From: a virus
Virus genome (UHGV): UHGV-1374997
Strand: one strand, 5' to 3'
Length of the DNA: 64,000 bases
Shown here piece after piece: positions 2,190-62,706 of the stretch (its first letter is position 1; every line of letters starts with the position of its first letter). The position numbers and the translations under genes are program-made. The notes under the pieces were generated by a model. The model had not been told where the DNA came from. It ran no database searches and worked only from the letters and a program-made list of their open reading frames with translations.

Positions 2190-2993
2190 ATGTGGGCATC
2201 TGATAATATCCGAGTAAATGTGGAAGGTTCCCCCGAAGCGGTTGCCGAGTTTTTCTTGCGTCTTGGAGGAATGAAGTCCGGATTTAATGAAGCAGTAGAA
2301 TCGCCTATTTCTTCCGAGCCACATAAACACGAATCAGTGGTAGAAAAGATTGATACGAAAGATGAAAAGAACACGTCTTCCATCGAAGATAAGCCCGTTG
2401 AAAATGAAGAAGAGGCACCTGACGTAGAAAACAAGCCTACGAATAGTGACGAAGAACGTGAGCATTTGAAGTCTATTCTTACCGAACGCGGCATCGAGTT
2501 CTCTCCTCGTGCACGTCTTGCCACATTGAAGAAGCTCGTAGAAGATTCCGATAACACTGTCGAAGAAACCACCAAAGAACCTGAACCCGAAATTATCGAA
2601 AATGACGATGTTCCTCCCGTCATGGAAGACCCTGCGGCGACTATTTTGCAGAAGACCGGGCAGGAAGAATATAACGGCGAGAAAAGCTGTGCCCCCGAAG
2701 AAGAGGGCTATGAGGATGTTCCTTCCGCTCCGCTCAAGTTTGAGGAAGAGCCCGAAAGAAATTATACTCCCGCAGAATTTCTGGATGAGTGCAAGCGGTA
2801 TTGCAGTCGGGTAATGCGGACTGGCAGAGATCTTGATACGTCCCATAGAATGCTTGCCGATATTCTTCAAAATGTGACGGGTGTAACTCGCAAAGTCATT
2901 GAAGTTGAGGAGAAATATTACAATACGATTGTGACGAAACTTCATAATCACATAGATCTTTTGCGAGAAGACCACAATTCAACCAATGAATAA
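2190..2993 (+). CDS. highly acidic hypothetical protein
   Basis: 267 aa, very rich in E/D, RBS aaaggaga upstream. The central region is low-complexity and acidic. Confidence 0.45.
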   Translation: MWASDNIRVNVEGSPEAVAEFFLRLGGMKSGFNEAVESPISSEPHKHESVVEKIDTKDEKNTSSIEDKPVENEEEAPDVENKPTNSDEEREHLKSILTERGIEFSPRARLATLKKLVEDSDNTVEETTKEPEPEIIENDDVPPVMEDPAATILQKTGQEEYNGEKSCAPEEEGYEDVPSAPLKFEEEPERNYTPAEFLDECKRYCSRVMRTGRDLDTSHRMLADILQNVTGVTRKVIEVEEKYYNTIVTKLHNHIDLLREDHNSTNE

Positions 2994-3013
2994 AAAAATG
3001 AAAGGTAAGTATA

Positions 3014-4276
3014 TTGGGAAAACATAGCAGGATAGGAGCTTCTTCCTCAGAAAGATGGATGGCGTGTCCCGCTTCCGTCAGGATGAGCGTTGGGCTCAAA
3101 AACGAAGGCAGCCCCGCAGCAAAAGAGGGCACGGCGGCCCATGCTCTCGCAGAGTTCTGCCTTAAAAATGAGATGTATCCCGCATGTAAGAAAGGAAAAA
3201 AGATCTACGTAAAGGGAGATTCCTTTGAGATAGAAGAAGAGATGATAAAAAGCGTCTCTCTTTACGTAGGTCACATTCTTTACGTAGTTCATAATCAAAA
3301 ATTGTGGATGGACGAGAATGGCGACCTTGTTCAAATCGACACCGAAAATGCCCATTTTGAAAAGTTTGAGAAAGGGGATAGCAAGAAGCTGTCCGTCGAG
3401 GAAAAATTCGCTCTTACTTGGATAAAGGAAGGGATGTTCGGTACATGCGACTGTAATTACAAAGATTATAAGAATAGGAGACTATATGTATTCGACCTAA
3501 AATATGGAAAGAGCACGCCAGTAACAGCCGTTGACAATTCTCAAATGAAATACTACGCTTTGGGTATTGTAGGAGAGCCATTATCGAATGACGACTTTGA
3601 TGAAGTAGTAATGGTTATTGTCCAGCCGAGAAACGATTGTTTTGGAGTAAGTTCGTATAGTCTAAAGATCGATGATCTCTATCTCTGGGCTGAAACGGAG
3701 TTACGCCCTGCGGCAGAAAAGACAGAAGATCCTGATGCCGAATTTTCATCAGGAGATCATTGTAAATGGTGCCCGGCCTTTGGAGTTTGTCCTCAGATCG
3801 AAAAAGATCTTGGATATTTAGTAAATTATAACAATTATATAGAAGAAAAGAAAAAAAATATTGAACTTCCAGACCCAAGACACTTGACAAGTGAAGAAAA
3901 GTCTCGTATATTGCATCTATCGATTGTGTACGCACCTTGGATCGAAGCGGTGGCAAAATCAGCTTATGAAGACGCTGTCGCGGGAAGATTAGTTCCGGGG
4001 TTTAAGCTAGTTAAAAAAAGAAAATCGAGACGAGTTTGGAGGGACAATGCGCTCACCGCCCAAGAGCTAAGTTTGAAGTATGGAGATGAAATTTTTGAGG
4101 AGAGAAAGTTAAAATCGCCTTCTAAATTAGAAGGTATTTTGACAGGAGAGGAAATTGATCTCTACTCATTTAGACCGGAATCCGGTACGGAATTAAAACC
4201 AGAAAACGATAAACGTAAATCCGTAAATCCATTAACATCTATCGACGAATTTTATTCGCAACAAGAGGAAAACTAA
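3014..4276 (+). CDS. PD-(D/E)XK nuclease with Cas4-like Cys cluster (DUF2800-like)
   Basis: The N-terminus SSSERWMACPAS matches the DUF2800 signature. Also has a DLKYGKS motif and a C-terminal Cys cluster DHCKWCPAFGVCPQ. Apparent TTG start. Confidence 0.7.
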   Translation: MGKHSRIGASSSERWMACPASVRMSVGLKNEGSPAAKEGTAAHALAEFCLKNEMYPACKKGKKIYVKGDSFEIEEEMIKSVSLYVGHILYVVHNQKLWMDENGDLVQIDTENAHFEKFEKGDSKKLSVEEKFALTWIKEGMFGTCDCNYKDYKNRRLYVFDLKYGKSTPVTAVDNSQMKYYALGIVGEPLSNDDFDEVVMVIVQPRNDCFGVSSYSLKIDDLYLWAETELRPAAEKTEDPDAEFSSGDHCKWCPAFGVCPQIEKDLGYLVNYNNYIEEKKKNIELPDPRHLTSEEKSRILHLSIVYAPWIEAVAKSAYEDAVAGRLVPGFKLVKKRKSRRVWRDNALTAQELSLKYGDEIFEERKLKSPSKLEGILTGEEIDLYSFRPESGTELKPENDKRKSVNPLTSIDEFYSQQEEN

Positions 4277-4277
4277 A

Positions 4278-4937
4278 ATGGCAAGAGTTACTAAGCGCGT
4301 TATTTTCAAGGCTTCTATTTCTTATCCTCATCTTTCTGCGCCCGTAGTCAATCCCAATGATAAGAACAAAGACCCCCAGTATAGCATTGAAGCGCGCATT
4401 CCCAAGAGCGACGTAGACACGATTAAGAAAGTGCGCTCCGTGCTTGAGGAAGTTTATACCGAGGGTGCTGGCCCGGATAAGAAGAAGTGGAAAGTTGATT
4501 TTCGTGAGCCCGGCTTTTTTGATACGTATCTGTCGAAGCAAGGCAAGGATGGTTTCCCTCTTCGAGACGGCAAGTATAAGCCGAGCGGCGATTGCGACGA
4601 TATTGTTTTCATGAGCGTCAAAAACAAGTATCCTATTGCTCTGGGCGTAAAGACTGGCCCCACGACTTATCGGAAGCTCGAATCGAAAGAAGAAATCGAA
4701 AAGGAACTTTACGCTGGTTGTATCGCCGATGTCATCATGGACGTTTACTATAATGACAGGCCCGGCACTGAACCCGGATGCTTCCTTTCCCTCAAGGGTG
4801 TCGTAAAGACTGGTGAAGGACAGCGTCTTGCCGGAAGCTCTCCCGTCGACCTTGGCGAACTCTATGGCACCGAAGAAAATAACGATGTAACCTACGGTGG
4901 CTCGGAAGATTCTTCCTCCGATGATTTGCCGTTCTAA
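4278..4937 (+). CDS. DUF2815-like phage ssDNA-binding protein
   Basis: N-terminal pattern MARVTKRVIFKASISYPHL fits DUF2815. Sits between the DUF2800 nuclease and PolA, as in other phages. Confidence 0.55.
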   Translation: MARVTKRVIFKASISYPHLSAPVVNPNDKNKDPQYSIEARIPKSDVDTIKKVRSVLEEVYTEGAGPDKKKWKVDFREPGFFDTYLSKQGKDGFPLRDGKYKPSGDCDDIVFMSVKNKYPIALGVKTGPTTYRKLESKEEIEKELYAGCIADVIMDVYYNDRPGTEPGCFLSLKGVVKTGEGQRLAGSSPVDLGELYGTEENNDVTYGGSEDSSSDDLPF

Positions 4938-4959
4938 TAAAAAATAAGGAAATAAAATA

Positions 4960-5262
4960 ATGTCAGAGAATGAAAAGACCAACAATGTTTGCCGCCGCGA
5001 CTTGACGAATGCCGTCATGCGTATTACCGGATTCCGCCGTGCTGATATCGAAAAGGTTATCAATGCGTATACCGAGGTGATTTATGCCAATCTTAAAGCA
5101 GGGCGTAGCGTGAAGCTGCATCGGCTTTGTACTTTCAAGGTCGTAGACTTGGCCCCTCGTGAGTTCCGTTCGAACCTTACCGGAGAAATTGTTCGTAAGC
5201 CCGCACGAAAACGTGTTCGTGTGAAGCTTTCCTCCCGACTCCAGATTAATGAGAAGAACTAA
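4960..5262 (+). CDS. HU/IHF-family DNA-binding protein
   Basis: 100 aa with HU-like layout: N-terminal helix (LTNAVMRITG...KVINAYTEVI) and a beta-arm segment LTGEIVRKPARKRVRVK. Confidence 0.55.
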   Translation: MSENEKTNNVCRRDLTNAVMRITGFRRADIEKVINAYTEVIYANLKAGRSVKLHRLCTFKVVDLAPREFRSNLTGEIVRKPARKRVRVKLSSRLQINEKN

Positions 5263-5340
5263 AACCCTATAACAAAAGTCCCCGCATCCGAGCTAAAAAA
5301 GCAAAGAGCGGGGACTCTACGTTTATATTGAGAGACCGTC

Positions 5341-5529
5341 ATGACCATATCAAACTGTTTGTACTGTGGAGGTAGAGGAAAACTTCTGATTCGGTCGTCA
5401 TTAAAGAAATACAGGAAAATAGATCTGTATCAGGTTAAATGTAATAAGTGCCATGCTAGAGGCCCTATTTCCGATAGTGAAATCAATGCGATACGTCATT
5501 GGAACGGAAAAGGGTATCCTTCCTCCTAA
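5341..5529 (+). CDS. Lar-family restriction alleviation protein (small Zn-ribbon)
   Basis: CLYCGG...VKCNKCHARGP...AIRHWN matches the Lar family pattern CPFCGG..C..C.A....WN. Confidence 0.5.
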   Translation: MTISNCLYCGGRGKLLIRSSLKKYRKIDLYQVKCNKCHARGPISDSEINAIRHWNGKGYPSS

Positions 5530-5594
5530 AAAGTTCTTGACATGGAAAGCATAATTTAATAGGTTGTAAAAAAACATCAACAAGGAGAGAAAAT

Positions 5595-6644
5595 ATGTCT
5601 ATTCTCAAGTCCAAAGTTTCCGTTATCCGTTTTATCACCGAAGTTGAAGATAATCTTGAAACTATCATCAATGGGCTTAACGCCGCACGTTTTCAGGAGA
5701 AGTGGGAAGCCGGGATGGATTCCATGCAAGGCTTCTGTCCTCTTAACGACCGTTGGGGCTGCTCTGATTTCCACGAAGGCAACATCAAGGCGAATGGGTT
5801 TATTGCATTCTTTTTCCGTACTGACACTAAGCGGGTAGATCCCAATCTTCTCAAGCGTGAAATTTCTGACCGGATTGAGCGTTTCTCTGAAACTCATGGA
5901 AAGAAGCCCAACCGTGAAGAACGTAAGGACATTCAGGTCACTGTGAAGAACAAATTGCTCAATGAAGAAAAAGCCAAGCCTTCTTTCTATCCGGTCATGT
6001 TTAATCCCGAGACGGGGGAAGGGTATCTTTTCGCTACTTCCAATAGTGTCTTTGAGAAGTTCCGGGCATCGTTCAAGTTGGTTGCCGGGATTCCGAATGT
6101 CAAGAATCTCGAAGAAATCGTGGAATCCAGAAACCTTGATTTTATGGTCTATAGCCAGACGTTCCTGACGTGGTTCTGGTGGCGCATGGAGAATGATCCC
6201 ACCAAACCTGTCACTACCGAGAATACTTCCTACGAATGCTCCATGAGCGGCATTGTAACGGTAAGTTCGGCGGAAACCGGGGAAAAGGTCACGGAGAAGT
6301 CGGATCAGCTTCATGAGGCTCGTATGGCCCTTCTGCGGGGTCTTCGTGCGGAAAAGGCGGCGGTTACTTGCTGCGCTGGTTCTGGTGTCAATATTGAGTT
6401 TACTTTGGATAATGAAAGCCTCAATATTTCCGGGCTCCCTATTCCTAAGATGGAAGAAAAGCCGAGCGACGTGTTTGAAGAATTTGAACATGCGAAGATT
6501 CATATTGATGAAGCTTTTGCTCTTATTGATTCTTTGATGGAGGAATATATTGAGCTTAATGCAGTAGGCGACCCGCTGCCTCCTACGCCGCTTATTCATT
6601 GGGGCCGTGGAGATTTTTGTTCCGGAAGCATTGAAATTCTGTAA
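5595..6644 (+). CDS. hypothetical protein (possibly RdgC-like, recombination-associated)
   Basis: 349 aa with a good RBS (aaggagagaaaatATG). Weak overall resemblance to the RdgC architecture. The overlapping antisense ORF 5577..6665 looks like junk. Confidence 0.35.
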   Translation: MSILKSKVSVIRFITEVEDNLETIINGLNAARFQEKWEAGMDSMQGFCPLNDRWGCSDFHEGNIKANGFIAFFFRTDTKRVDPNLLKREISDRIERFSETHGKKPNREERKDIQVTVKNKLLNEEKAKPSFYPVMFNPETGEGYLFATSNSVFEKFRASFKLVAGIPNVKNLEEIVESRNLDFMVYSQTFLTWFWWRMENDPTKPVTTENTSYECSMSGIVTVSSAETGEKVTEKSDQLHEARMALLRGLRAEKAAVTCCAGSGVNIEFTLDNESLNISGLPIPKMEEKPSDVFEEFEHAKIHIDEAFALIDSLMEEYIELNAVGDPLPPTPLIHWGRGDFCSGSIEIL

Positions 6645-11747: not shown

Positions 11748-12401
11748 ATGTTTAAATTCAATTATTTGGATAGGATTCTTATAGCTCTTTTAATTAGCGT
11801 ATTTATTGCTAATTCAGTACATAATTATGTAACACTTACAAATTTTAGAAAAAGTAAGAATGTTCAGATAGAGGAACTTCATCATAAGATAGAATTTTTA
11901 AGTACAGCGTTAGGAAGTATGGCCTCTGAAAATGCTATTATGAAGCAGAAGTTGGAAGCCCCTTATCAAAAAAAGGAAAATACGTCTCAAGATAAAAAAG
12001 AGACATACGGAGATACTAGAGGATTGCGGAATAACAATCCTTGTAATCTCAAAAGCTCGAAGAATACGAAATGGGACGGTCAAGTCGGAAGTGATGGCAA
12101 GTTCATTATTTTTGAGTCCCCTGAATATGGTATCCGTGCTTGTGCAAAAAATCTAAAGAATTATCAGCAGAAAAATGGCCTTGACACATTGCGGAGCATG
12201 GTGTATAGAATGGGACCTCCTCACGAAAACGATACAAAAAAATATGTTCGTAATTTATCTAATATCGTAGGAGTATCCCCGGATGAAAAAATTAATGTTC
12301 TTAAACATCTCCCCGAGATTATAAAGGGAATCATTTTTCTTGAAAATGGGAAAATGCCCTATCCTGAGAAGATGTTTATCGGATATACAATCTTTAACTA
12401 A
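11748..12401 (+). CDS. membrane-anchored hypothetical protein
   Basis: N-terminal TM helix (ILIALLISVFIANSV). C-terminal domain carries RNNNPCNL...W.G...F.....G.RA. Family not identified. Confidence 0.4.
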   Translation: MFKFNYLDRILIALLISVFIANSVHNYVTLTNFRKSKNVQIEELHHKIEFLSTALGSMASENAIMKQKLEAPYQKKENTSQDKKETYGDTRGLRNNNPCNLKSSKNTKWDGQVGSDGKFIIFESPEYGIRACAKNLKNYQQKNGLDTLRSMVYRMGPPHENDTKKYVRNLSNIVGVSPDEKINVLKHLPEIIKGIIFLENGKMPYPEKMFIGYTIFN

Positions 12402-30599: not shown

Positions 30600-31895
30600 A
30601 CCGGAATTTTTACTCTGAAAGTATCTCTTAACATTTCCCTATAAACTGAGTATAATTTAATCATGAAAAGAATGCAAGCATATAAATTCCAGTTACGTCC
30701 TAAAGCCAAGCAAGCAAATCTCATGTTGGGTTTTGCCGGATGCTGTCGCTTTGTATGGAATAAGGCGCTTGCATTAGAGAAAGAAACCTATCAAGAGGAG
30801 GGCAAACGTCTTGGGTATTATAAACTTGCTGGTTTGCTCAAAGATTGGAAAAAGGAAGAAGAAACATCTTTTCTTGCTAGAGCACACTCTCAGATATTGC
30901 AGCAGGTACTAAAAGATCTTGATCGGGCTTACAAAAATTTTTTTGAGAAGCGTGCGGATTTTCCACGATTCAAGAAGAAGGGTGCCCACAATACCTTTCG
31001 ATATCCGCAAGGCTTCAAGTTGGATGAAGGAAATAGTCGCGTTTATCTTCCCAAAATAGGTTGGGTGCGTTACAGAAAAAGCAGGGCTATAGAAGGGACG
31101 CTAAAGCAAGTAGCGGTTTCTCTTTCTGCCGGAGAGTGGTATGTCTCCATCCTGACTGAGAGGGAAGTAGTTGAACATATCCATCCCTCTCAAAGCTCTA
31201 TTGGTATTGATATGGGTGTTGCCCATTTTGCAATGCTCTCTGATGGAAGCACAATTGAACCGTTGAACAGCTTTCGCAAATATGAAAAGAAGTTGGCAAA
31301 ACTGCAACGCAAACAAGCGAGATGCAAAAAGTTTTCCGCCAACTGGCAAAAGGTCAAATCACGCATTCAACGCTTGCACCTCCACATAGCTAATGCTCGC
31401 AAGGACTTTTTGCACAAGGCAAGCACAATGATTAGCAAAAACCACGCTGTTGTTGTACTTGAAGACTTGAAAGTGCGGAATATGTCCAGCTCAAAGACCG
31501 GAGGAAAACGCAAGTCAGGATTGAATAAATCTATATTGGATCAAGGGTGGTTTGAGTTCCGGCGGCAACTGTCTTACAAGCTGGCATGGATGGGTGGATC
31601 TTTGACCGCAATTCCTCCTCAGTATACCAGCCAGACCTGTAGCCGTTGCGGATGTGTAGATAAACAAAACAGACAAACGCAAGCCAAGTTTAAATGTATA
31701 GCTTGCGGATTTGAGATTAACGCCGATCACAATGCGGCGTTGAATATCTTGGCGGCAGGGCTTGCCGTTACAGCCTGTGGAGCGGGAAAGGCTCAAGCGC
31801 CCGCGTTGAATCAGGAACCCGCCTATAGTTTGGCCTAATTGGGCTTTACTGATAGGAATCCCTTGTTTGTAAGAATAAGGGAGGATGCCAAAACG
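30600..31895 (+). mobile_element. IS200/IS605-family TnpB-only element, copy 1
   Basis: Left end lies near ctgaaag (30615). Right end is taattgggctttactgataggaatccc + hairpin + gggaggatgccaaa. No tnpA. Inserted between the L-like and K-like tail genes. Confidence 0.7.
30663..31838 (+). CDS. tnpB: TnpB (OrfB_IS605) RuvC-like RNA-guided nuclease
   Basis: RuvC-I IGIDMGV, RuvC-II VVLEDL, Zn finger CSRCGC...CIACG, RuvC-III NADHNAALNI. 391 aa. Confidence 0.9.
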   Translation: MKRMQAYKFQLRPKAKQANLMLGFAGCCRFVWNKALALEKETYQEEGKRLGYYKLAGLLKDWKKEEETSFLARAHSQILQQVLKDLDRAYKNFFEKRADFPRFKKKGAHNTFRYPQGFKLDEGNSRVYLPKIGWVRYRKSRAIEGTLKQVAVSLSAGEWYVSILTEREVVEHIHPSQSSIGIDMGVAHFAMLSDGSTIEPLNSFRKYEKKLAKLQRKQARCKKFSANWQKVKSRIQRLHLHIANARKDFLHKASTMISKNHAVVVLEDLKVRNMSSSKTGGKRKSGLNKSILDQGWFEFRRQLSYKLAWMGGSLTAIPPQYTSQTCSRCGCVDKQNRQTQAKFKCIACGFEINADHNAALNILAAGLAVTACGAGKAQAPALNQEPAYSLA

Positions 31896-45213: not shown

Positions 45214-46493
45214 CTGAAAGCACTTCTTGACATTTTCTTACAAACAAGCTATGGTTTAAGCCATGAAAAGAATGCAAGCATATAAATTCCAGCTCCGCCC
45301 CAAAGCCAAGCAAGCAAATCTCATGTTGGGTTTTGCCGGATGCTGTCGCTTTGTCTGGAATAAGGCGCTTGCATTGGAGAAAGAAACCTATCAAGCGGAG
45401 GGCAAACGTCTTGGGTTTTATAACCTTTGTAAGGCCCTCCGCGATTGGAAAAAGGAAGAAGAAACATCTTTTCTTGCTGGAGCACACTCTCAGATATTGC
45501 AGTTTGTATTGAAGGATCTTGATCAGGCTTACAAAAATTTCTTTGAGAAGCGTGCAAATTTCCCACGATTCAAGAAGAAGGGTGTCCACAATACCTTTCG
45601 TTATCCGCAAGGCTTCAAGTTGGATGAAGGAAATAGCCGCATTTATCTTCCCAAAATAGGTTGGGTGCGTTACAGAAAAAGCAGGGTCATAGAAGGGACG
45701 CCAAAGCAAGTAGCGGTTTCTCTTTCTGCCGGAGAGTGGTATGTCTCCATCCTGACTGAGAGGGAAGTAGTTGAACATATCCATCCCTCTCAAAGCTCTA
45801 TTGGTATTGATATGGGTGTTGCCCATTTTGCAATGCTCTCTGATGGAAGCACAATTGAACCGTTGAACAGCTTTCGCAAATATGAAAAGAAGTTGGCAAA
45901 ACTGCAACGCAAACAAGCGAGATGCAAAAAGTTTTCCGCCAACTGGCAAAAGGTCAAATCACGCATTCAACGCTTGCACCTCCACATAGCTAATGCTCGC
46001 AAGGACTTTTTGCACAAGGCAAGCACAATGATTAGCAAAAACCACGCTGTTGTTGTACTTGAAGACTTGAAAGTGCGGAATATGTCCAGCTCAAAGACCG
46101 GAGGAAAACGCAAGTCAGGATTGAATAAATCTATATTGGATCAAGGGTGGTTTGAGTTCCGGCGGCAACTGTCTTACAAGCTGGCATGGATGGGTGGATC
46201 TTTGACCGCAATTCCTCCTCAGTATACCAGCCAGACCTGTAGCCGTTGCGGATGTGTAGATAAACAAAACAGACAAACGCAAGCCAAGTTTAAATGTATA
46301 GCTTGCGGATTTGAGATTAACGCCGATCACAATGCGGCGTTGAATATCTTGGCGGCAGGGCTTGCCGTTACAGCCTGTGGAGCGGGAAAGGCTCAAGCGC
46401 CCGCGTTGAATCAGGAACCCGCCTATAGTTTGGCCTAATTGGGCTTTACTGATAGGAATCCCCCGCTTTTAGGCGGGGGAGGATGTCAAATAA
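45214..46493 (+). mobile_element. IS200/IS605-family TnpB-only element, copy 2
   Basis: Left end cctgaaagcacttcttgacatttt. Right end taattgggctttactgataggaatccc + ccgcttttaggcgggg hairpin + gaggatgtcaaataa. Confidence 0.7.
45263..46438 (+). CDS. tnpB: TnpB (OrfB_IS605) RuvC-like RNA-guided nuclease
   Basis: 391 aa. The C-terminal 230 aa are identical to copy 1. The N-terminal region matches copy 3. Confidence 0.9.
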   Translation: MKRMQAYKFQLRPKAKQANLMLGFAGCCRFVWNKALALEKETYQAEGKRLGFYNLCKALRDWKKEEETSFLAGAHSQILQFVLKDLDQAYKNFFEKRANFPRFKKKGVHNTFRYPQGFKLDEGNSRIYLPKIGWVRYRKSRVIEGTPKQVAVSLSAGEWYVSILTEREVVEHIHPSQSSIGIDMGVAHFAMLSDGSTIEPLNSFRKYEKKLAKLQRKQARCKKFSANWQKVKSRIQRLHLHIANARKDFLHKASTMISKNHAVVVLEDLKVRNMSSSKTGGKRKSGLNKSILDQGWFEFRRQLSYKLAWMGGSLTAIPPQYTSQTCSRCGCVDKQNRQTQAKFKCIACGFEINADHNAALNILAAGLAVTACGAGKAQAPALNQEPAYSLA

Positions 46494-54107: not shown

Positions 54108-55375
54108 TTATTTGACATCCTCCCCCGCCTAAAGTCGGGGGATTCCTATCAGTAAGGCCCAATTAGACCAAACTATAGGCGGGTTCCTGATTCAACGCGG
54201 GCGCTTGAGCCCTTCCCGCTCCACAGGCTGTAACGGCAAGCCCTGCCGCCAAAATGTTCAACGCCGCATTGTGATCAGCGTTAAATTCAAATCCGCAAGC
54301 TGTACATTTAAATTTGGCTTGCGTTTGTCTGTTTTGTTTATCCACACATCCGCAACGGCTACAGGTCTGGCTGGTATACTGAGGAGGGATTGCGACCAAA
54401 GATCCACCCAACCATGCCAGCTTGTATGTCAACTGCCGCCGGAACTCAAACCACCCTTGATCCAATATAGACTTATTCAAACCTGACTTGCGTTTTCCTC
54501 CTGCCTTTGAGCTGGACATATTCCGCACTTTCAAGTCCTCAAGCACAACAACAGCGTGGTTTTTGCTAATCATTGTGCTTGTCTTGTGCAGAAAGTCCTT
54601 GCGAGCATTAGCTATGTGGAGGTGCAAGCGTTGAATGCGTGATTTGATCTTTTGCCAGTTGGAGGAAAACTTTTTGCATCTTGCTTGTTTGCGTTGCAGT
54701 TTTGCCAACTTCTTTTCATATTTGCGAAAGCTATTCAACGGTTCAATTGTGTTTCCATCAGAGAGCGTTGCAAAATGAGCAACACCCATATCAATACCAA
54801 TAAAACTTTTAGACGGATGAATAGGCTCCGGAGCTTCACGCTCTGTCAGAATGGATACATACCATTCTCCAGCAGAAAGAGAAACCGCTACTTGCTTGAG
54901 AGTCCCTTTTATAGCCCGGCTTTTTCTGTAACGCACCCAACCTATTTTGGGAAGATAAACGCGGCTATTTCCTTCATCCAACTTGAAGCCTTGCGGATAG
55001 CGAAAGGTGTTGTGAGCACCTTTCTTCTTGAATTGAGGGAAATTTGCACGCTTCTCAAAGAAATTTTTGTAAGCCTGATCAAGATCCTTCAATACAAACT
55101 GCAATATCTGAGAGTGCGCTCCAGCAAGAAAAGATGTTTCTTCTTCCTTTTTCCAATCACGGAGGGCCTTACAAAGGTTATAAAACCCAAGCCGTTTTCC
55201 CTCCGCTTGATATGTTTCTTTCTCCAATGCAAGCGCCTTATTCCAGACGAAACGGCAGCACCCGGCAAAACTCAACATGAGATTTGCTTGTTTGGCTTTA
55301 GGACGTAACTGGAATTTGTATGCTTGCATTCTTTTCATGGCTTAAATTATACTCAGTTTATAGGTAAATGTCAAG
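54108..55375 (-). mobile_element. IS200/IS605-family TnpB-only element, copy 3 (inverted)
   Basis: The right end matches copy 2 through gggggaggatgtcaaataa. The left end carries a 68-bp copy-specific segment with a G9 tract. Beyond that, 55443-55476 matches the upstream flank of copy 1. Confidence 0.7.
54163..55338 (-). CDS. tnpB: TnpB (OrfB_IS605) RuvC-like RNA-guided nuclease
   Basis: 391 aa. Motifs IGIDMGV, VVLEDL, CSRCGC...CTACG and NADHNAALNI are intact. About 93% identical to copies 1 and 2. Confidence 0.9.
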   Translation of the reverse strand: MKRMQAYKFQLRPKAKQANLMLSFAGCCRFVWNKALALEKETYQAEGKRLGFYNLCKALRDWKKEEETSFLAGAHSQILQFVLKDLDQAYKNFFEKRANFPQFKKKGAHNTFRYPQGFKLDEGNSRVYLPKIGWVRYRKSRAIKGTLKQVAVSLSAGEWYVSILTEREAPEPIHPSKSFIGIDMGVAHFATLSDGNTIEPLNSFRKYEKKLAKLQRKQARCKKFSSNWQKIKSRIQRLHLHIANARKDFLHKTSTMISKNHAVVVLEDLKVRNMSSSKAGGKRKSGLNKSILDQGWFEFRRQLTYKLAWLGGSLVAIPPQYTSQTCSRCGCVDKQNRQTQAKFKCTACGFEFNADHNAALNILAAGLAVTACGAGRAQAPALNQEPAYSLV

Positions 55376-55559: not shown

Positions 55560-55943
55560 TTACTTTTCCTCAGACATAAAAATGTAAAAATGATTTTTTG
55601 CGGGCTCGCAATATTGCCATTTGAGTATATGAGACGTATCAGTTGACCTACTCCCCATATATTTCAACTCACCTTCTTGTATCTTCTTATTAAAAAATCC
55701 TATATACCACACTTTTTTATCGTCGCTAAAAGCTACAAGTTCTCCCTCCCGAAATTCCTGATCTGGGGCATCGTAAGTCCCCGCAAGATGTTCGTTACCT
55801 TCGTAAGGAATGCAATACTTACACACAATCAAGCTGGTATCTTTAAAAGCGTCCCCTACCTTTCCCGAAAAAAGCGCGGGCTCCCAAATTTCATGTTCAG
55901 AATCTCGCATCAAGACTTTATCAAAAGGCTTAAAATCGTACAT
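55560..55943 (-). CDS. hypothetical protein, paralog of 56264..56641
   Basis: Shares FDKVL.RDSE..IW....F.....YCIP..GNEHL.GT...CEPAKNHF. Confidence 0.45.
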   Translation of the reverse strand: MYDFKPFDKVLMRDSEHEIWEPALFSGKVGDAFKDTSLIVCKYCIPYEGNEHLAGTYDAPDQEFREGELVAFSDDKKVWYIGFFNKKIQEGELKYMGSRSTDTSHILKWQYCEPAKNHFYIFMSEEK

Positions 55944-56263: not shown

Positions 56264-56641
56264 CTAAGAATTAAATTCAAAGTGATTTTTTGCGGGCTCG
56301 CAACAGTCCCATTCTTGACATCCGCTAGATGAAGTGCACCCGAAGGTGACAAAGAGCTTTTTATCGTTACAGATTATTATTTCTTTAAAAATTCGCAAAT
56401 GCCAAACAGATTCATAGTTGTCTCTAACCGCCACAAGGTCGCGTTGCTTAGGCACCCATTCACTATTCTTTGTCCCCACAAGATGCTCATTGCCGAGGGC
56501 AGGGATGCAATATTCCCAAAGAGCTTCATTAATAGCTATAACCTTCCCATCTCTTCTATAATGAGAGAAAAATGTTGCGACCCAAATATCATCTTCGGAA
56601 TCCCTAACCAAAACCTTATCAAACATTTTAAACTCAGGCAT
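56264..56641 (-). CDS. hypothetical protein, paralog of 55560..55943
   Basis: Same conserved motifs as its paralog. Confidence 0.45.
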   Translation of the reverse strand: MPEFKMFDKVLVRDSEDDIWVATFFSHYRRDGKVIAINEALWEYCIPALGNEHLVGTKNSEWVPKQRDLVAVRDNYESVWHLRIFKEIIICNDKKLFVTFGCTSSSGCQEWDCCEPAKNHFEFNS

Positions 56642-57024
56642 TAGATTTCCTCCTTTATTATATTTTGTTCCGCCATAATAAATGCCGCATCAATTTCCTT
56701 AGCTATTTGGTCAGCAATATAATCCTCATCTTTAACTCCATCTTTCTCTACAGACATGGACGCTAGGCATAAAAGAGCATCCGAAAGAATCTTGACCGAC
56801 TTACACGCCGCAACGATATACTTAGCGTTGGCAAGCTGTTGCTCTCTCAGGACGTTTTGAGCAGGATAGTCCTTACAGACATACATGCTTACCATTGCGA
56901 TATGCTTGTCTCCGCAGTTAATGGCTCCATGACAATGAGACTCGTCAAGATGCCAATCGCCTCCATTCGTAGCGGCTTTCCTTAGCTTTTCCAATCCTGT
57001 AAGGAATCTAAGACTTTCGTTCAT
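56641..57024 (-). CDS. hypothetical Cys/His-containing protein
   Basis: Start reassigned to MNESL with RBS aaaggatgg. Confidence 0.4.
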   Translation of the reverse strand: MNESLRFLTGLEKLRKAATNGGDWHLDESHCHGAINCGDKHIAMVSMYVCKDYPAQNVLREQQLANAKYIVAACKSVKILSDALLCLASMSVEKDGVKDEDYIADQIAKEIDAAFIMAEQNIIKEEI

Positions 57025-57385
57025 ATCTCGCCATCCTTTCTTCATGTTCCATTTCCGCCTCGACCATAAGTTCAGCTTCACGCAAAAGGCACCAATTACC
57101 GCAACCGGGGAAGCTTCCACCTTTGCGCGGACACAAAGCCTTCATACTGTGAGCGCAAGGTACATCATTGTAATCCATGCTAATCAGTTTAATCTTTACG
57201 CGAGACTCGAACATAAGAGCGTCATAATAGTCAGGATACAAGGAATCAAAATACCCTCTTTCCGGACAATCTCTGCACATAAGGGAGGATTGATATTCAC
57301 AATTTTTGCATTGATCGATAAAATAAACTCTGTTTTTAAGCCACTCTTTTTCCTTGTTTGTAAGACCGTACTTGTTTTTTCTCAT
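57008..57385 (-). CDS. Cys-rich hypothetical protein
   Basis: CKNCEY...CRDCPERG...CAHS...CPRKGGSFPGCGNWC. Confidence 0.4.
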   Translation of the reverse strand: MRKNKYGLTNKEKEWLKNRVYFIDQCKNCEYQSSLMCRDCPERGYFDSLYPDYYDALMFESRVKIKLISMDYNDVPCAHSMKALCPRKGGSFPGCGNWCLLREAELMVEAEMEHEERMARYERKS

Positions 57386-57407
57386 GATGTCAATTCTCCT
57401 TTAATTT

Positions 57408-57620
57408 TTATCGGTTATCTGGCAATCCCAAAGTTATAAGCCTCGTAAGAACATGAGGTTTCGGAACTCCGAAAAGCATTGAGAGCCTAGTAATACTATA
57501 ATTATGTTCCTCTGCTTTCTCTCTAAACAATTCCTCCGGCATCAAAAGCTCGTATGCGAATAGGTTAGCTTCAATCTCTTCTTCTCTCGTAAATTGCTTT
57601 GATTCGTTTTTCATGCCCAT
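57408..57620 (-). CDS. stand-alone ImmA/IrrE C-terminal-domain mini-protein (no HEXXH)
   Basis: EANLFAYELLMPEELFRE...FGVPKPHVLTRLITLGL matches the family pattern EAN.FA.ELLMP....RL..LG. Has its own promoter and RBS agggagg. Confidence 0.5.
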   Translation of the reverse strand: MGMKNESKQFTREEEIEANLFAYELLMPEELFREKAEEHNYSITRLSMLFGVPKPHVLTRLITLGLPDNR

Positions 57621-57641
57621 TTCCTCCCTCTCTTGAAATAG

Positions 57642-57670
57642 ATACTACGAAATTATATTGGAGGTGTCAA
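57642..57670 (-). promoter_or_regulatory. sigma70-like promoter TTGACA-17-TAGTAT (leftward)
   Basis: The minus-strand sequence is ttgacacctccaatataatttcgtagtat. It lies 30 nt upstream of the ATG at 57620. Confidence 0.5.
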
Positions 57671-57691
57671 TACTTTTTTGTTTAAACTACA

Positions 57692-57741
57692 AGATAAAAA
57701 TAAAGACTTGTGACGATTCAGGTTGTCACAAGTCTTTATTT
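57692..57741 (-). terminator. 13-bp stem hairpin with flanking A/T runs (terminator of SPFH operon, possibly bidirectional)
   Basis: aaagacttgtgac-gattcaggtt-gtcacaagtcttt. Confidence 0.55.
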
Positions 57742-57745
57742 GCAT

Positions 57746-58630
57746 TTATTCGAGGGGGATATTCAGCATCGGAATATTCTCGCCAGTAACCTTGGGCAAT
57801 ACTCCATTCCATCCTGTAGCCATGATGTATCGGATAAGCTCAGGGGTAAGGGACTCAGCGAGCTTCTTATTCGCTGTATATTGAGCTTCCGCTTTCTTCG
57901 TAATGGAATATGCCTCGGCGTCCGCAATCTTTCGCATAGATTCCGCACGGCCTTCCGCCTCGGCTTTCTTCTTATCCGCCTCAGCTTGCGCAGTTTCAAT
58001 TTCTGTGCGACGCTGCGTAGCAATCTGAATAGCGCCTACCTTAGCATCAATCGCTTCCTTTACGTTCTGGGGAAGCCAGATATTGCCAACAATGGCAATG
58101 TAATCAATCTTAATCCCAAGAGGCGCAAGACGTTCACGAACGGCCTCCGTCACCTGCATGATAAACTCGGTCTTCTTTTCCCCGTAAAGCTGCTCAGAAG
58201 TCCTCGTAGAAGCGGCACGGACAATCTCGTCTCGAATCATATTGTAAACGTATACGTTCGTGATTTCGTCAATGCCCTTTCTGTACGTCTGGAAAAGCAA
58301 AGACACTTTATCGGGATCAACGGAGTAAGACAGAGAAACGTCAGCACTGAGAGAAAGCCCTTCCTTGGATTGGAATTGGAATGCGCCGCTATTTCCGGTT
58401 CCCCGCCATTCCTTTGTCTGCTGCGCCGTAGAGAACGTGAAAAGCTGTTCATTGATGCCTACCCAATAGCGGCCTACACCAAGCTTTTCAGTATCCACAC
58501 CTTTCGACGAGCCAAGCAAATTCACCTTTACGCCGACATATCCAGCCTCGACTTTCTCAATACAAGTAAGAGCGTAAATGCCGAAAGCAAGGACAAAAAC
58601 AAGAGTAACACACGCGATAATCTTTTTCAT
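57746..58630 (-). CDS. SPFH/band-7 (HflC/flotillin-like) membrane protein
   Basis: N-terminal TM helix. SPFH core (AGYVGVKVNLLG...) and the Ala/Glu/Lys-rich coiled-coil tail AEADKKKAEAEGRAESMRKIADAEA typical of band-7 proteins. Confidence 0.75.
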   Translation of the reverse strand: MKKIIACVTLVFVLAFGIYALTCIEKVEAGYVGVKVNLLGSSKGVDTEKLGVGRYWVGINEQLFTFSTAQQTKEWRGTGNSGAFQFQSKEGLSLSADVSLSYSVDPDKVSLLFQTYRKGIDEITNVYVYNMIRDEIVRAASTRTSEQLYGEKKTEFIMQVTEAVRERLAPLGIKIDYIAIVGNIWLPQNVKEAIDAKVGAIQIATQRRTEIETAQAEADKKKAEAEGRAESMRKIADAEAYSITKKAEAQYTANKKLAESLTPELIRYIMATGWNGVLPKVTGENIPMLNIPLE

Positions 58631-58890
58631 TATACATCTTCCTTAGAAATAATTTTAAAAATTTTATAACTCAAAAATACAGTTACGGGGAAACTAATAA
58701 TCAATGCCGCTCCGGTCAGAACCAAAGCCGTAGATTCGGAACTAATCAAAAACGGCAGAAGAAATCCAAACAGCCCAATCACATAAACCAGATTGATCAA
58801 GACGTAAACCAAAAATAGGAGAATATCATCTTCCGTCTTTTGTAGAATTGAAGCACCCTTTTCCGTTTTTTCGTTATTCATCGGAACCAC
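58630..58890 (-). CDS. small two-TM membrane protein, putative SPFH partner (NfeD/YqiJ-like role)
   Basis: 86 aa with two TM helices. Its stop overlaps the SPFH start, indicating translational coupling. Confidence 0.45.
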   Translation of the reverse strand: MVPMNNEKTEKGASILQKTEDDILLFLVYVLINLVYVIGLFGFLLPFLISSESTALVLTGAALIISFPVTVFLSYKIFKIISKEDV

Positions 58891-59146
58891 CTTTATGATC
58901 TAGTTTTTCCCGGAGCTTCCATTCTTGGATAGAACGCTGGAGATATCCTTTTTCCCATTCTTCCACTCCTACCTCCTTTTTTACGGCTACCATAGCGTTT
59001 CTTACTTCCGCGCAAGACCGTTTCAATGCTGCGGTATACGTTACTCCAGCATACTCGTAGCCAAGAGCGGCTACGAGCCTTGCCCGTTCGAGAAATCTTT
59101 CGCACTCAAAGATTGCGGTGTCTACGGTTTTCTTATTAATACTCAT
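58874..59146 (-). CDS. hypothetical protein
   Basis: 90-aa ORF. Confidence 0.4.
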   Translation of the reverse strand: MSINKKTVDTAIFECERFLERARLVAALGYEYAGVTYTAALKRSCAEVRNAMVAVKKEVGVEEWEKGYLQRSIQEWKLREKLDHKGGSDE

Positions 59147-59241
59147 TTTTCAAGCTCCTCCTTTTTTATATGGGTTATCAGTACAAATCTGTTTATCTAT
59201 ATTAGGGGGGCTTAATGCCCCCACTACTTTACAAAATCCAA

Positions 59242-59412
59242 TTATTCGGGCTTCGCGTAATTCGGAGCTTTTACGGGCTTACGAAATTCCGCCTTGCACT
59301 TGTCGCAAAGCTGAGTCCCTCTTACGCGGGGCTTTCCACATTCTGCACAACGCAACGCCTTTTCGGGATTCTTCTTGCCATAGAAAAAGCTGGTAGGAAT
59401 CATAATAGCCAT
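59242..59412 (-). CDS. small Zn-ribbon protein (56 aa, below ORF-track cutoff)
   Basis: Translates by eye to MAIMIPTSFFYGKKNPEKALRCAECGKPRVRGTQLCDKCKAEF..., with RBS ggagaga. Confidence 0.3.
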   Translation of the reverse strand: MAIMIPTSFFYGKKNPEKALRCAECGKPRVRGTQLCDKCKAEFRKPVKAPNYAKPE

Positions 59413-59530
59413 GTTGATCTCTCCTTGTCGATTAAAATGTTTAGATTAAAATGGTTTGATAGAATATTTCCGTGTTCCCTTTCTCTTGAAAGGCATACTA
59501 TGAAATTTTCGTTACCTTGTCAACACTTTT

Positions 59531-60031
59531 TTAAAAATTATTTTCAATGCTCCATTCAATCCAATTCATCCTATCTTTATGCGCGGTTCCATTGGGCTTC
59601 GCTACAGGCCAATAATAGCCCTTCGGATAGCGACCTAACGAGTCCTTGCTAATGCCGCCAAAAAACTTTTTCGTATGATAGTAGTCAAAGTCCTTACGCA
59701 AGAGATTGACCCTTTGCGAGAAGTGGAAAAGCCCATCCCCAAGCCAGAAAGGTTTTTCGGTGGATTCAAAACTGTATAATCTGACACCACTCAACCTCTC
59801 ACGAGTCGCATGTGACTTTCCGAATCGCATATAATATTCGGAACACAAAGTTGCGATATATCTACTCAAATCGTATTCATGCCCTTCCCACATAAGACAA
59901 GCTGGATGGTTCTTTGTGGGCACACGACCAGAAAAAATCTGATAGGCTTCCACGATTTGCTTATTCAGCCTCTTGTTGTCGAGAATCTTAGCCGTTTCAA
60001 GGAAGCCTGGAACGGGAAGAAATGTCTGCAT
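59531..60031 (-). CDS. pyrimidine-dimer DNA glycosylase-like (DenV/Pyr_excise-like) protein
   Basis: N-terminus MQTFLPVPGFLETAKILDNKRLNKQIVEAYQI...NHPACLMW resembles the bacterial and viral endonuclease V-like family. Confidence 0.4.
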   Translation of the reverse strand: MQTFLPVPGFLETAKILDNKRLNKQIVEAYQIFSGRVPTKNHPACLMWEGHEYDLSRYIATLCSEYYMRFGKSHATRERLSGVRLYSFESTEKPFWLGDGLFHFSQRVNLLRKDFDYYHTKKFFGGISKDSLGRYPKGYYWPVAKPNGTAHKDRMNWIEWSIENNF

Positions 60032-60049
60032 GACAATTAACCTCTTTCT

Positions 60050-60403
60050 TTAAGAATTAAAAACGGTGCGCCTACGAAGACTAGAGCATCCTTTAACACG
60101 ATGATTTTCGTCCCGTACAAGTTCGTCGGGGCAAAGCAAATCAATCCTGTCAGACGAATCAAAAACCATGTTCGTTACGATGTACATAACACCCAATTCC
60201 GGAGCGGGCAAGCCTTTAATCTCTCTTTCCACAATTTCACTTACGGGAACAAACCCCTTAGGGTCATGAGCAGACAAAACAGTATCATATTCTCGGGCAT
60301 AGTTAACCCGAGCCATGCCTTCCGGTTCAAAACGAAATAATTCTGTAGTCCCAGAAGGATTGTAAACATTAATCTGGTGCCCGGTGAAATTACGAATCTT
60401 CAT
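60050..60403 (-). CDS. hypothetical protein
   Basis: 117-aa ORF. Confidence 0.4.
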   Translation of the reverse strand: MKIRNFTGHQINVYNPSGTTELFRFEPEGMARVNYAREYDTVLSAHDPKGFVPVSEIVEREIKGLPAPELGVMYIVTNMVFDSSDRIDLLCPDELVRDENHRVKGCSSLRRRTVFNS

Positions 60404-60531
60404 TTTTATCCTCTTTTAGTTTATTTTATACGGGAAGAATAGAAAACACAAAGACCACTATAGCAGCGACAATCATCCTTTCAACGAAACTGAATGTATC
60501 GAAACTTTTCATAGGAGTCAACCATTTTTTT

Positions 60532-62028: not shown

Positions 62029-62349
62029 TTATTTAAAAATATACACGATAAGAATTGTAAACAAGACCACCGCACCAAATCCGGCTAGAGAAGCAACTAC
62101 TCCATATGCAAATGATTCGGGAAACTTTTCAACAAAACGCCTTTTCATGACATACATTCTTTGGGAAATCTCTTTTGAGGGAACTTCATATTCACGCCCA
62201 CACATTGTGCATTTCCAAATAAAAACCGCCTCCCCATCTCCTCTTAGTTCGTTCCCATCCTTTTGGAAAACCGTATGTGAACCACCACAAACAGGGCAGT
62301 CCCTTCCAAAATCATATGCTGGCACTGAGATACGAATATCGTTTTTCAT
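62029..62349 (-). CDS. Zn-ribbon + C-terminal TM anchor protein (paralog of 62374..62706)
   Basis: CPVCGG...CTMCG, with a C-terminal hydrophobic helix. Confidence 0.45.
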   Translation of the reverse strand: MKNDIRISVPAYDFGRDCPVCGGSHTVFQKDGNELRGDGEAVFIWKCTMCGREYEVPSKEISQRMYVMKRRFVEKFPESFAYGVVASLAGFGAVVLFTILIVYIFK

Positions 62350-62373: not shown

Positions 62374-62706
62374 TTACTTAAAGAGTGATTCGAAAAGCAG
62401 GAGTCCCAAACAACCTAACCCAAATACACCTATAAAGACCAATGCGGAGCATATCAAAGTTTTGGCTAAATCCTCCCAAAAAATTTTAATAAAAATATAT
62501 TTTAGATGTTCGGTCTTTTGGGAAACCTTTTTCCCCGGAACTACGTAATTATAGGAGCATCTCCGGCATCTCCAAACGAATACCGTTTCTCCATCTTCCG
62601 TTGTTTTTATATCTGGTGTATAACCATTCAAAGGCCAGTCCTCACAGATAGGGCATTTATCCGGGGCCTTATATGCTGGCCTATCCACAATATCGCTGTA
62701 TTTCAT
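62374..62706 (-). CDS. Zn-ribbon + C-terminal TM anchor protein (paralog)
   Basis: CPICED...CRRCS, with a C-terminal hydrophobic helix. Same architecture as its paralog. Confidence 0.45.
   Translation of the reverse strand: MKYSDIVDRPAYKAPDKCPICEDWPLNGYTPDIKTTEDGETVFVWRCRRCSYNYVVPGKKVSQKTEHLKYIFIKIFWEDLAKTLICSALVFIGVFGLGCLGLLLFESLFK

Follow-up and report, generated by a model that had tools for sequence, protein, structure and literature searches.

Why would a phage carry a gene for a membrane-anchored SPFH/Band-7 protein, and what would a peptidase fragment lacking the catalytic motif of its family be doing next to it? This question is raised by a short region of the virus genome UHGV-1374997, of which a stretch of 64,000 nucleotides (nt), hereafter the window, was analysed. 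Three small genes of its minus strand are at issue: those of a 294-amino acid (aa) SPFH protein, of an 83-aa partner with two hydrophobic, presumptive transmembrane (TM) helices, and of a 68-aa protein, here called M78-short, that resembles the end of the M78 domain of ImmA/IrrE-type metallopeptidases. With moderate confidence, the locus can be described as two small accessory modules within the early, leftward gene block of a phage of ~86 kb, probably virulent and associated with gut Desulfovibrionaceae, with the SPFH cassette altering the envelope and M78-short acting by binding.

Read from 59550 to 57000, i.e., in the direction of transcription, the minus strand presents a 90-aa gene, the two-TM gene, the SPFH gene, a hairpin terminator, a promoter and the M78-short gene. 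The first three open reading frames (ORFs) overlap start-to-stop, through ATGAATAA between the end of the 90-aa gene (58874..59146) and the start of the two-TM gene (58630..58881), and through TAATG, an overlap of 1 nt, between the latter and the SPFH gene (57746..58630). Directly after the SPFH stop codon lies an intrinsic terminator with a 17-bp stem and a U-tract (57690..57741), whose hairpin (57741-57698) folds with -22.8 kcal/mol, versus -6.7 ± 2.2 for shuffled sequences (z = -7.3). It is present in L001, L004 and L005 (L-numbers are labels of related contigs or loci), with a conserved stem and a variable loop. A sigma-70-type promoter, TTGACA-17-TAGTAT preceded by an A-tract (57642..57670), then opens the M78-short unit and is kept in the same three relatives; it is followed by a ribosome-binding site (RBS) read from the sequence, GGGAGG (57623..57628), 8 nt upstream of the ATG at 57614 and kept in relatives as well. 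The exact TTGACA-17-TAGTAT pattern occurs twice, at 57670 and 59523, versus 0.25 occurrences expected, and the two sites have more than the hexamers in common: their shared sequence, AAAAAAGTnTTGACA-N10-AATTTCrTAGTAT-N3-TTTCAAGAGA, has a chance expectation of 0.06. The second site (59495..59523) probably opens the transcription unit of which the SPFH gene is the last gene.

There are consequently two transcription units in this region: the two-TM/SPFH pair closes the first one at the terminator, and M78-short is the first gene of the second. The original prediction, made from the same sequence, had correctly recognized the promoter and RBS in front of the ImmA-like ORF, the translationally coupled pair and the strong hairpin terminator. 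It had nonetheless placed all three genes in one leftward operon driven by that promoter, with the SPFH pair further down. This arrangement does not hold, as terminator and promoter separate the pair from the ImmA-like gene and the pair lies upstream of it. Neither Rfam nor tRNA scans of the whole window gave a match, and a DNA search of 56500-60500 against GenBank phages was equally without result.

The identity of the SPFH protein was established by profile searches, which the original prediction had suggested with both PF01145 and Peptidase_M78; both profiles matched, the second one partially (see below). PF01145 is covered from position 2 to 176 of 176 (E 4.9e-26; 92.3 bits versus a cut-off of 23.6), and phrog_200, a family labelled 'lipoprotein' or prohibitin family protein, matches across the full length (E 4.9e-72). 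Residues 1-28 are hydrophobic. An AlphaFold2 (AF2) model made with 30 homologues (predicted local distance difference test score, pLDDT, of 79) consists of a helix (2-22), an alpha/beta domain (24-185), a 73-residue helix (188-260) and a disordered tail. The overall architecture is that of an N-terminal membrane anchor, an SPFH domain, a long coiled coil and a C-terminal W-(N/D)-G-x-L-P motif. Foldseek aligns the model end-to-end, with a probability of 1.0, to cage subunits of erlin, prohibitin, HflK/C, stomatin, QmcA and flotillin; judging from model and hydropathy, the protein would combine the membrane anchor, alpha/beta domain and long coiled-coil helix of the cage-forming members of the superfamily. 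Strong purifying selection acts on the gene, with ratios of non-synonymous to synonymous substitution rates (dN/dS) of 0.02-0.08 among the close relatives of this phage (the window clade).

Which of the known SPFH proteins it is closest to is less marked. QmcA is the best match by sequence in the PDB (E 8e-7), and the distances to QmcA, HflC and prohibitin are about the same (E 1e-6 to 1e-4). Scores against the NCBIfam equivalogs are far below their cut-offs, with 23.5 bits versus 159.4 for HflK (TIGR01933) and 18.5 versus 427 for HflC (NF008259). Of the proposed HflK/C-like SPFH protein, the SPFH domain was therefore retained and the HflK/C label was not: the phage protein is not an HflK/C orthologue. 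It resembles E. coli HflK/HflC, the partners of FtsH, in its fold, with an anchor, an SPFH domain and a coiled coil, the bulk of the protein being predicted outside the cytoplasm. In E. coli, however, HflK and HflC form a tandem pair, whereas the window has a single SPFH gene, next to that of an 83-aa two-TM protein and not of a protease. The QmcA-YbbJ (SPFH-NfeD) system likewise associates an SPFH gene and a small membrane-protein gene in an operon, but the partner found here is shorter and has neither an NfeD domain nor an OB-fold; a search of the two-TM ORF, in an 86-aa version, for NfeD (PF01957) gave no match at E <= 0.1. The closest homologues of named origin are found in Bilophila wadsworthia (61% identity) and Desulfovibrio (54-60%), and the best match in a GenBank phage is that of the Desulfovibrio phage ProddE (54%).

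The lipoprotein label of phrog_200 was considered and not adopted for the window clade. While a canonical lipobox, L-[AST]-[GA]-C, is found in the majority of the family, the aligned position reads ALTC, which is non-canonical, in the window protein, and the cysteine is replaced by a serine in L003. An uncleaved membrane anchor is thus the more likely nature of the SPFH N-terminus in this clade, as far as such motifs can tell.

The small partner matches phrog_1130, annotated 'membrane protein' (E 3.4e-8), and its hydropathy profile displays two hydrophobic helices joined by PFLISSEST, within a conserved inter-helix motif G..LPFLISSxS. Its ORF extends to a GTG at 58890, but the most likely start is the ATG at 58881, which gives 83 aa. 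Constraint on this gene is moderate (dN/dS 0.16-0.34). Together, the two genes closely resemble the phrog_200 and phrog_1130 cassettes of other phages, such as gp9-gp10 of ProddE and the Ostro pair: the SPFH proteins align over their full length with 39-54% identity, gene order and coupling are the same, and the small partner, overlapped with the SPFH gene, has a G..P.L(I/V)S motif in common with the window protein. More precisely, ProddE, a member of the Autographiviridae, the temperate Pseudomonas phage Ostro, whose integrase is ~2 kb away, and the Serratia myovirus Spe5P4 all have a 64-84-aa gene directly before the SPFH gene, and its product aligns with the window protein and shares G-x3-P-x-L-(I/V)-S between two hydrophobic helices.

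Such genes are frequent. In tblastn searches, a homologue of the SPFH protein was detected in 619 of 50,697 phage records (610 of them covering at least 80% of the protein), from phages of Staphylococcus, Pseudomonas, Klebsiella, Erwinia, Bacillus, Escherichia and many other hosts, and a pattern scan of IMG/VR gave at least 527 confirmed SPFH loci; with a PHROG of their own in addition, phage SPFH proteins are not uncommon, contrary to what had been supposed. At 63 of the 80 best IMG/VR loci, many of which are near-identical Pseudomonas prophages and therefore not independent, the SPFH start lies no more than a few bases from the end of an ORF for which two or more TM helices are predicted, and the overlap is typically of 4 nt. 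The cassette is not restricted to phages either. An integrative conjugative element (ICE) of Bilophila wadsworthia and gut metagenomes (L249-L255) carries the two-TM gene at 4805-5011 and the SPFH gene at 5001-5924, flanked by those of TraM and a Fic protein, and a relaxase, a coupling protein, KorB and an integrase are encoded nearby; its SPFH protein is the one that is 61% identical to that of the window. The two-TM and SPFH genes of the window are thus a new member of a known but uncharacterised family that is spread in virulent phages, temperate phages and conjugative elements, where it ranks among the more widespread accessory gene pairs.

Three relatives illustrate that the cassette can be lost in part. 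In L001 (9643-9876), L002 (1559-1792) and L194 (3564-3869), the SPFH gene is internally deleted by ~575 nt, leaving a remnant of 77-102 aa, and the two-TM partner and M78-short genes are kept intact; the cassette is therefore accessory and dispensable. The locus provides a compact example of a cassette delimited by promoter and terminator, for which these natural deletion variants offer a comparison. Several genome papers mention phage SPFH genes, i.e., those of Vi01-like phages, of Kayvirus (mbpS, with mbpV) and of a Schitovirus, and one of them states that the reason for their presence is unclear. Literature on SPFH genes of phages, ICEs or prophages was found to consist of descriptive mentions, with no functional study.

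M78-short (57408..57614) is a different case, as it corresponds to a part only of a known domain. The Peptidase_M78 profile (PF06114) is matched with 42.8 bits, for a gathering threshold of 22 (E 5.5e-11), at positions 68-121 of 123, and in a library of defence systems the best match is PADLOC capP, at positions 96-138 of 242. Relatives with a solved structure, as found by sequence, are PrpR (E 2.4e-9), CapP and an IrrE orthologue. The original prediction of a 70-aa ImmA C-terminal module is correct as to the module but not as to its length: there is a first in-frame ATG at 57620, and relatives start at the second one, at 57614, where L004 has a GTG with no ATG upstream, which gives 68 aa. None of these 68 residues forms an HEXXH motif. 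In alignments the protein begins ~13 residues before a helix with the signature E-A-N, and full-length relatives have their HEXXH ~30 residues upstream.

What is kept can be placed by comparison with characterised enzymes. The zinc ligands are H97, H101 and E128 in CapP and H82, H86 and E113 in IrrE, and a central helix-turn-helix (HTH) domain follows the peptidase domain in both (CapP and IrrE papers). Residues E15-A16-N17 of M78-short are near-invariant to invariant, and a profile alignment to CapP 124-176 would put their glutamate in the region of the third zinc ligand (CapP E128, IrrE E113). M78-short thus corresponds to the last-ligand helix and the HTH unit of the M78 domain. Its AF2 model (pLDDT 83) is a four-helix unit formed by the E-A-N helix and an HTH-like unit of three helices. 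With ImmA (from ICEBs1 of B. subtilis and phage phi105), IrrE (Deinococcus) and the CBASS-associated CapP, it has in common the E-A-N-x-F-A-x-x-L-L-M-P-E helix and the HTH unit, but it differs from them by the lack of the N-terminal alpha/beta part, of HEXXH, of the GAF domain and of an adjacent XRE gene. CapP, for instance, consists of a peptidase domain, a central HTH and a C-terminal GAF domain, whereas M78-short ends after the HTH unit, and its 68 aa compare with 145-546 aa in the best 80 cellular homologues. A regulatory use of an M78-type domain is known from PrpR of M. tuberculosis and RamB-type proteins (XRE HTH, M78-like and C-terminal domains). PrpR is also the best Foldseek match of the model (TM-score 0.62, 35% identity), although it is a multidomain DNA-binding regulator of 429 aa, of which only ~50 residues correspond to M78-short.

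A split gene was envisaged and rejected. Searched with a hidden Markov model of the HEXXH-bearing N-terminal half, built from 66 full-length relatives, the six frames of the window and of L098 and L258 (19 kb) yielded no complementing half, the best E-value being 3.7. On sequence grounds, M78-short cannot be a protease, because HEXXH is absent and no complementing half was found; this agrees with the original prediction. A reading as a DNA-binding HTH regulator was set aside as a minor possibility: the next Foldseek matches after PrpR are weak ones to Fis/NtrC HTH domains (E 0.4-1), and the net charge is -3.3, with an acidic N-terminal half (-6) and a basic HTH half (+3). A cognate XRE repressor was looked for as well, and HTH_3/XRE profiles gave no match in the neighbouring and other early ORFs scanned, nor is any such gene called beside M78-short in relatives.

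The gene is nonetheless well kept. A word-indexed search recovered seven M78-short clusters with 79-99% identity, all encoding 68-72 aa, and in every window-clade context recovered the gene follows the SPFH cassette, whatever lies downstream. Compared with L003, the most distant relative, 76% of synonymous and 17.5% of non-synonymous sites differ (dN 0.20, dS saturated), and closer pairs have dN/dS ratios of 0.13-0.43, on small counts. The DNA upstream of the ORF is regulatory sequence and not decayed coding sequence. M78-short, which is 68-72 aa long in all relatives, is thus maintained under purifying selection and is not a recent pseudogene. That it might be the truncated and inactivated version of a gene that is longer in related phages, a possibility raised at the outset, is not borne out, since the short form is present in every one of them. 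A stand-alone, HEXXH-less M78 module is a modest new variant, which illustrates that selection can keep the C-terminal helical/HTH part of ImmA-type peptidases on its own in phage-like genomes.

How these two modules would act can be proposed as follows. The SPFH protein would probably form a ring or cage, as all structurally solved SPFH proteins do, at the outer side of the cytoplasmic membrane, with the two-TM protein as its client or anchor, and the cassette would alter the behaviour of the envelope to the benefit of the element that carries it. The preferred, though tentative, guess is that it keeps out incoming DNA or protects the membrane while the element takes over the cell, because the cassette is common to virulent phages, prophages and an ICE. 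Superinfection exclusion or abortive infection, which the original prediction had also named, may be involved. M78-short would act by binding and not by proteolysis, as a small regulator or adaptor.

Several points weigh against this proposal. Among 83 SPFH loci, 77 have no M78-type module nearby, the exceptions being five close relatives and L084, where a probably full-length ImmA-type gene lies ~1.8 kb upstream of the SPFH gene, and in about seven further lineages M78-short lacks an SPFH gene beside it; a functional link, if there is one, therefore does not hold generally. Neither the SPFH nor the two-TM protein is matched by a PADLOC model, so that an exclusion or defence role is only a guess. 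The analogous SPFH pair of Kayviruses lies in the lysis region, which points to a different role. The TnpB insertion of L222 suggests that M78-short may be dispensable or re-wirable: the TnpB copy (2773-3948, i.e., about window positions 57700-57590) sits between the SPFH terminator and the gene and replaces its promoter and about its first nine codons. The acidic net charge of M78-short speaks against simple DNA binding, and the substrate- and single-stranded DNA (ssDNA)-binding surfaces of CapP are located outside the segment that M78-short retains (CapP paper); simple decoy (see below) and plain DNA-binding ideas are therefore both weakened. Lastly, the reading as a virulent phage is based on a scan of ~82 kb (the window and 19 kb of a near-identical genome) that covers all but ~3.7 kb of that relative's genome and revealed neither an integrase nor a CI/CII-like or XRE repressor.

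A first alternative, rather unlikely, is that the three genes form one functional module after all, with the SPFH cage and the two-TM protein in the membrane and the inactive M78 protein as a cytoplasmic regulator, sensor or adaptor. Adjacency is kept in all window-clade genomes, and in one of them, L003, there is neither terminator nor promoter in the 55-nt gap before M78-short. Above all, the same trio recurs in a second lineage (L185-L191 and L223), where the SPFH protein has 272 aa, a canonical lipobox and 40% identity to that of the window. The two-TM gene is there an uncalled 70-aa ORF with the motif LPWVVSS, which overlaps the SPFH stop by 1 base, so that the order of the two genes is swapped relative to the window (L188). 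An HEXXH-less M78-short of 78 aa (P0026), 44% identical over 59 residues, follows 39 nt after the two-TM gene, and no promoter- or terminator-like site was found between the three genes. The surroundings are unrelated to the window phage and comprise a uridine kinase, repeat proteins, a DUF1016/YhcG nuclease, a TIR_2 protein, an ISL3 transposase and a DUF3800 protein (L188 5936-6418, 3975-5060 and 10444-10671; L191 1373-1981), a neighbourhood that resembles a defence island. Neither of the two M78-short proteins has the other as its nearest relative and, if this is real, the association arose twice.

Terminator and promoter nevertheless separate the genes in the window, and among the 83 SPFH loci a short M78 gene beside the SPFH gene is limited to the five close relatives mentioned above. 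The Bilophila ICE has the cassette, and no M78 module was found on it. Conversely, short M78 genes have no SPFH neighbour in L011, L012, L015, L184, L200 and L214, and L192 encodes an M78-short identical to the 78-aa protein of the second lineage, with no SPFH match in the ~630 nt upstream. A tree based on 55-60 residues cannot separate shared ancestry of the block from convergence. The grouping of the three genes in the original prediction is thus echoed by the second lineage and contradicted by the two transcription units of the window. The recurring trio, which rests on two lineages, is the only surprising element of this locus, and may reflect either a shared origin in an immunity or moron region of temperate elements or a real functional link. 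In the lysogeny modules of streptococcal and lactococcal phages, exclusion-type membrane genes and ImmA-type genes are commonly found side by side, and in the Ostro and ICE contexts the SPFH cassette is located near integrases. In its most specific form, i.e., an undescribed three-component module of mobile elements for exclusion, abortive infection or anti-defence, with the dead peptidase as cytoplasmic regulator or sensor of the SPFH cage, the idea is an unlikely one.

Two further alternatives concern M78-short alone and are each considered improbable. According to the first, the protein is an anti-defence or anti-induction decoy: an inactive mimic of COG2856 proteins would block the damage-triggered cleavage of XRE repressors and thereby keep CapH/CapP defence operons, prophages or ICEs silent. 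The strong early-type promoter in front of the gene, the purifying selection described above and the ranking of capP as best defence-library match are in keeping with such a role, as is the presence of stand-alone, HEXXH-less forms in phage-like contigs and in none of the 80 closest bacterial-genome matches. CapP/CapH are moreover known to regulate many immune operons (PMC13228613). Against this, the surfaces by which CapP binds CapH (an N-terminal hydrophobic patch and the GAF domain) and its ssDNA-contact residues (R90, K195, W196, Y264 and W280) all fall outside the retained segment, the contact of IrrE with DdrO's N-terminal domain is not mapped to it, there is no known host target and the gene is partly replaced by TnpB in L222. 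If it were true that M78-short binds host COG2856/XRE damage-sensing switches, it would represent a novel type of small regulator, or of anti-defence factor, in phages.

According to the second, the ORF has no function and is what remains of a full-length ImmA gene inherited from a temperate ancestor. ImmA genes typically belong to lysogeny modules, of which no counterpart was found in this phage, and all of the best 80 bacterial matches (one genome per species) are full length, their ORFs having an H[ED]xxH motif 12-40 residues upstream. In an exhaustive HMMER search of 1.84 billion representatives, 21 proteins were found at E <= 1e-3, a mix of HEXXH enzymes of 156-196 aa and HEXXH-less ORFs of 62-88 aa; IMG/VR added two further short forms (L200 and L214). 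A monophyletic family of short M78 proteins obtains no support from the identity analysis, with a mean identity of 36% between short forms and of 35% between short and full-length ones, which suggests repeated truncation; short forms probably have more than one origin, although the resolution offered by 55-60 residues is low. Genuine decay is also on record, in L245, a metagenome contig with a frameshifted full-length M78 pseudogene, and the 5' end of the M78-short gene is replaced by TnpB in L222. Yet the ORF is intact in seven of seven clusters, down to 79% identity, with the substitution pattern, conserved promoter and RBS and upstream regulatory DNA described above, all of which are difficult to reconcile with a loss of function. 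The contexts of six other short HEXXH-less forms are likewise those of intact small genes, located in co-oriented arrays of small genes with unrelated proteins upstream.

For the cassette, a control of lysis timing, in which the SPFH scaffold would restrain a two-TM membrane protein akin to a holin or antiholin, is very unlikely. The argument in its favour comes from Kayvirus, where mbpS (SPFH) and mbpV, a small membrane-protein gene described as holin-like, stand between lysK and tgl in the lysis region (PMC7150955). In the window, however, the cassette is part of the early leftward block, ~46 kb from the only endolysin-like gene found (11748-12401). It is also present near integrases in temperate phages and on a conjugative element, which does not lyse cells. 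As for an HflK/C-like action of the SPFH protein on host FtsH that would tune a lambda-like, CII-dependent lysis-lysogeny decision, as the original prediction had imagined, it is highly improbable, since membership of the SPFH superfamily, weak partial HflK/HflC profile matches and a predicted full-length structural match to HflK/C cage subunits, among others, are outweighed by the missed equivalogs, the equal distance to QmcA, HflC and prohibitin, the single SPFH gene without a K/C pair, the lack of integrase, CI/CII-like or XRE repressor genes in the ~82 kb scanned, and the occurrence of the cassette in strictly virulent phages (the Autographiviridae member ProddE, and Kayvirus) and on an ICE.

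The preferred reading, two separate accessory modules, also draws on the nature of the phage. Besides a PolA-type polymerase, helicases, exonucleases, a Gp2.5-like ssDNA-binding protein and RtcB, the window encodes an anaerobic ribonucleotide reductase, an HNH endonuclease and the large terminase. The 10 kb beyond each end of the window, read in an IMG/VR genome with 96-99% identity, add a methyltransferase, a Dda-like helicase, a primase, a resolvase, a Rha/Ant-like protein, the small terminase, a GNAT acetyltransferase and a GP88 protein. The phage is probably virulent. Its host is probably a member of the gut Desulfovibrionaceae, as suggested by the SPFH homologues of Bilophila, Desulfovibrio and phage ProddE and by the anaerobic ribonucleotide reductase. 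Attempts to identify the host from bacterial homologues of the 68-aa protein failed, the best one reaching 49% identity over 55 residues, and tblastn of the protein in its 70-aa version against GenBank phages gave no match. The leftward block that contains the locus (~63400-52200) is made of small genes, mostly without family match, as is typical of an early region. In a phage in which no other lysogeny genes were seen, the Rha/Ant-type anti-repressor-like gene (L098 1787-2494, in a 99% identical genome, ~8 kb outside position 1 of the window; phrog_63, E 7e-39) is a curiosity.

The 90-aa ORF has no family match and is kept upstream of the two-TM gene in L001, L005, L006 and L222, but not in L003. 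Further upstream, a 56-aa zinc-ribbon ORF (59412-59242, minus strand) is separated from it by a GC-rich hairpin without U-tract, GGGGGC-ATTAA-GCCCCC (59205-59224, minus strand), which, within the upstream unit, may serve as a weak terminator or in processing or stability. The 59523 promoter is immediately preceded by the gene of a 166-aa pyrimidine-dimer DNA glycosylase of the T4 endonuclease V type (59531-60031, minus strand; PF03013, E 2e-13), which is unusual in a phage of strict anaerobes. At the other end, the gene that follows M78-short in its unit encodes a 125-aa Cys-rich protein without family match (57008..57385). It is not a conserved neighbour, as other genes are inserted there in relatives: an 83-aa gene and a cREC_REC gene in L001, L004 and L005, and directly an HNH gene in L003.

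TnpB is present in three copies in the window, at 30663-31838 (plus strand), 45263-46438 (plus strand) and 54163-55338 (minus strand). Each encodes 391 aa with OrfB_IS605 and Cas12f1-like TNB domains, and the copies are 91-95% identical over ~1.24-1.29 kb; TnpA is not beside them, and Rfam detects no known RNA next to them. The copy of L222 represents a natural insertion site of this element. Two families of tandem paralogues are also found on the minus strand. The first, of ~125-128 aa (55560-55943 and 56264-56641), has no family match and an N-terminus of the form x-F-K-x-F-D-K-V-L-x-R-D-S-E, and three to five copies follow one another in relatives (L001 11704-13558). The second consists of adjacent genes of 106 aa (62029-62349) and 110 aa (62374-62706), whose products have two CxxC pairs and a C-terminal hydrophobic helix and would be tail-anchored zinc-ribbon membrane proteins.

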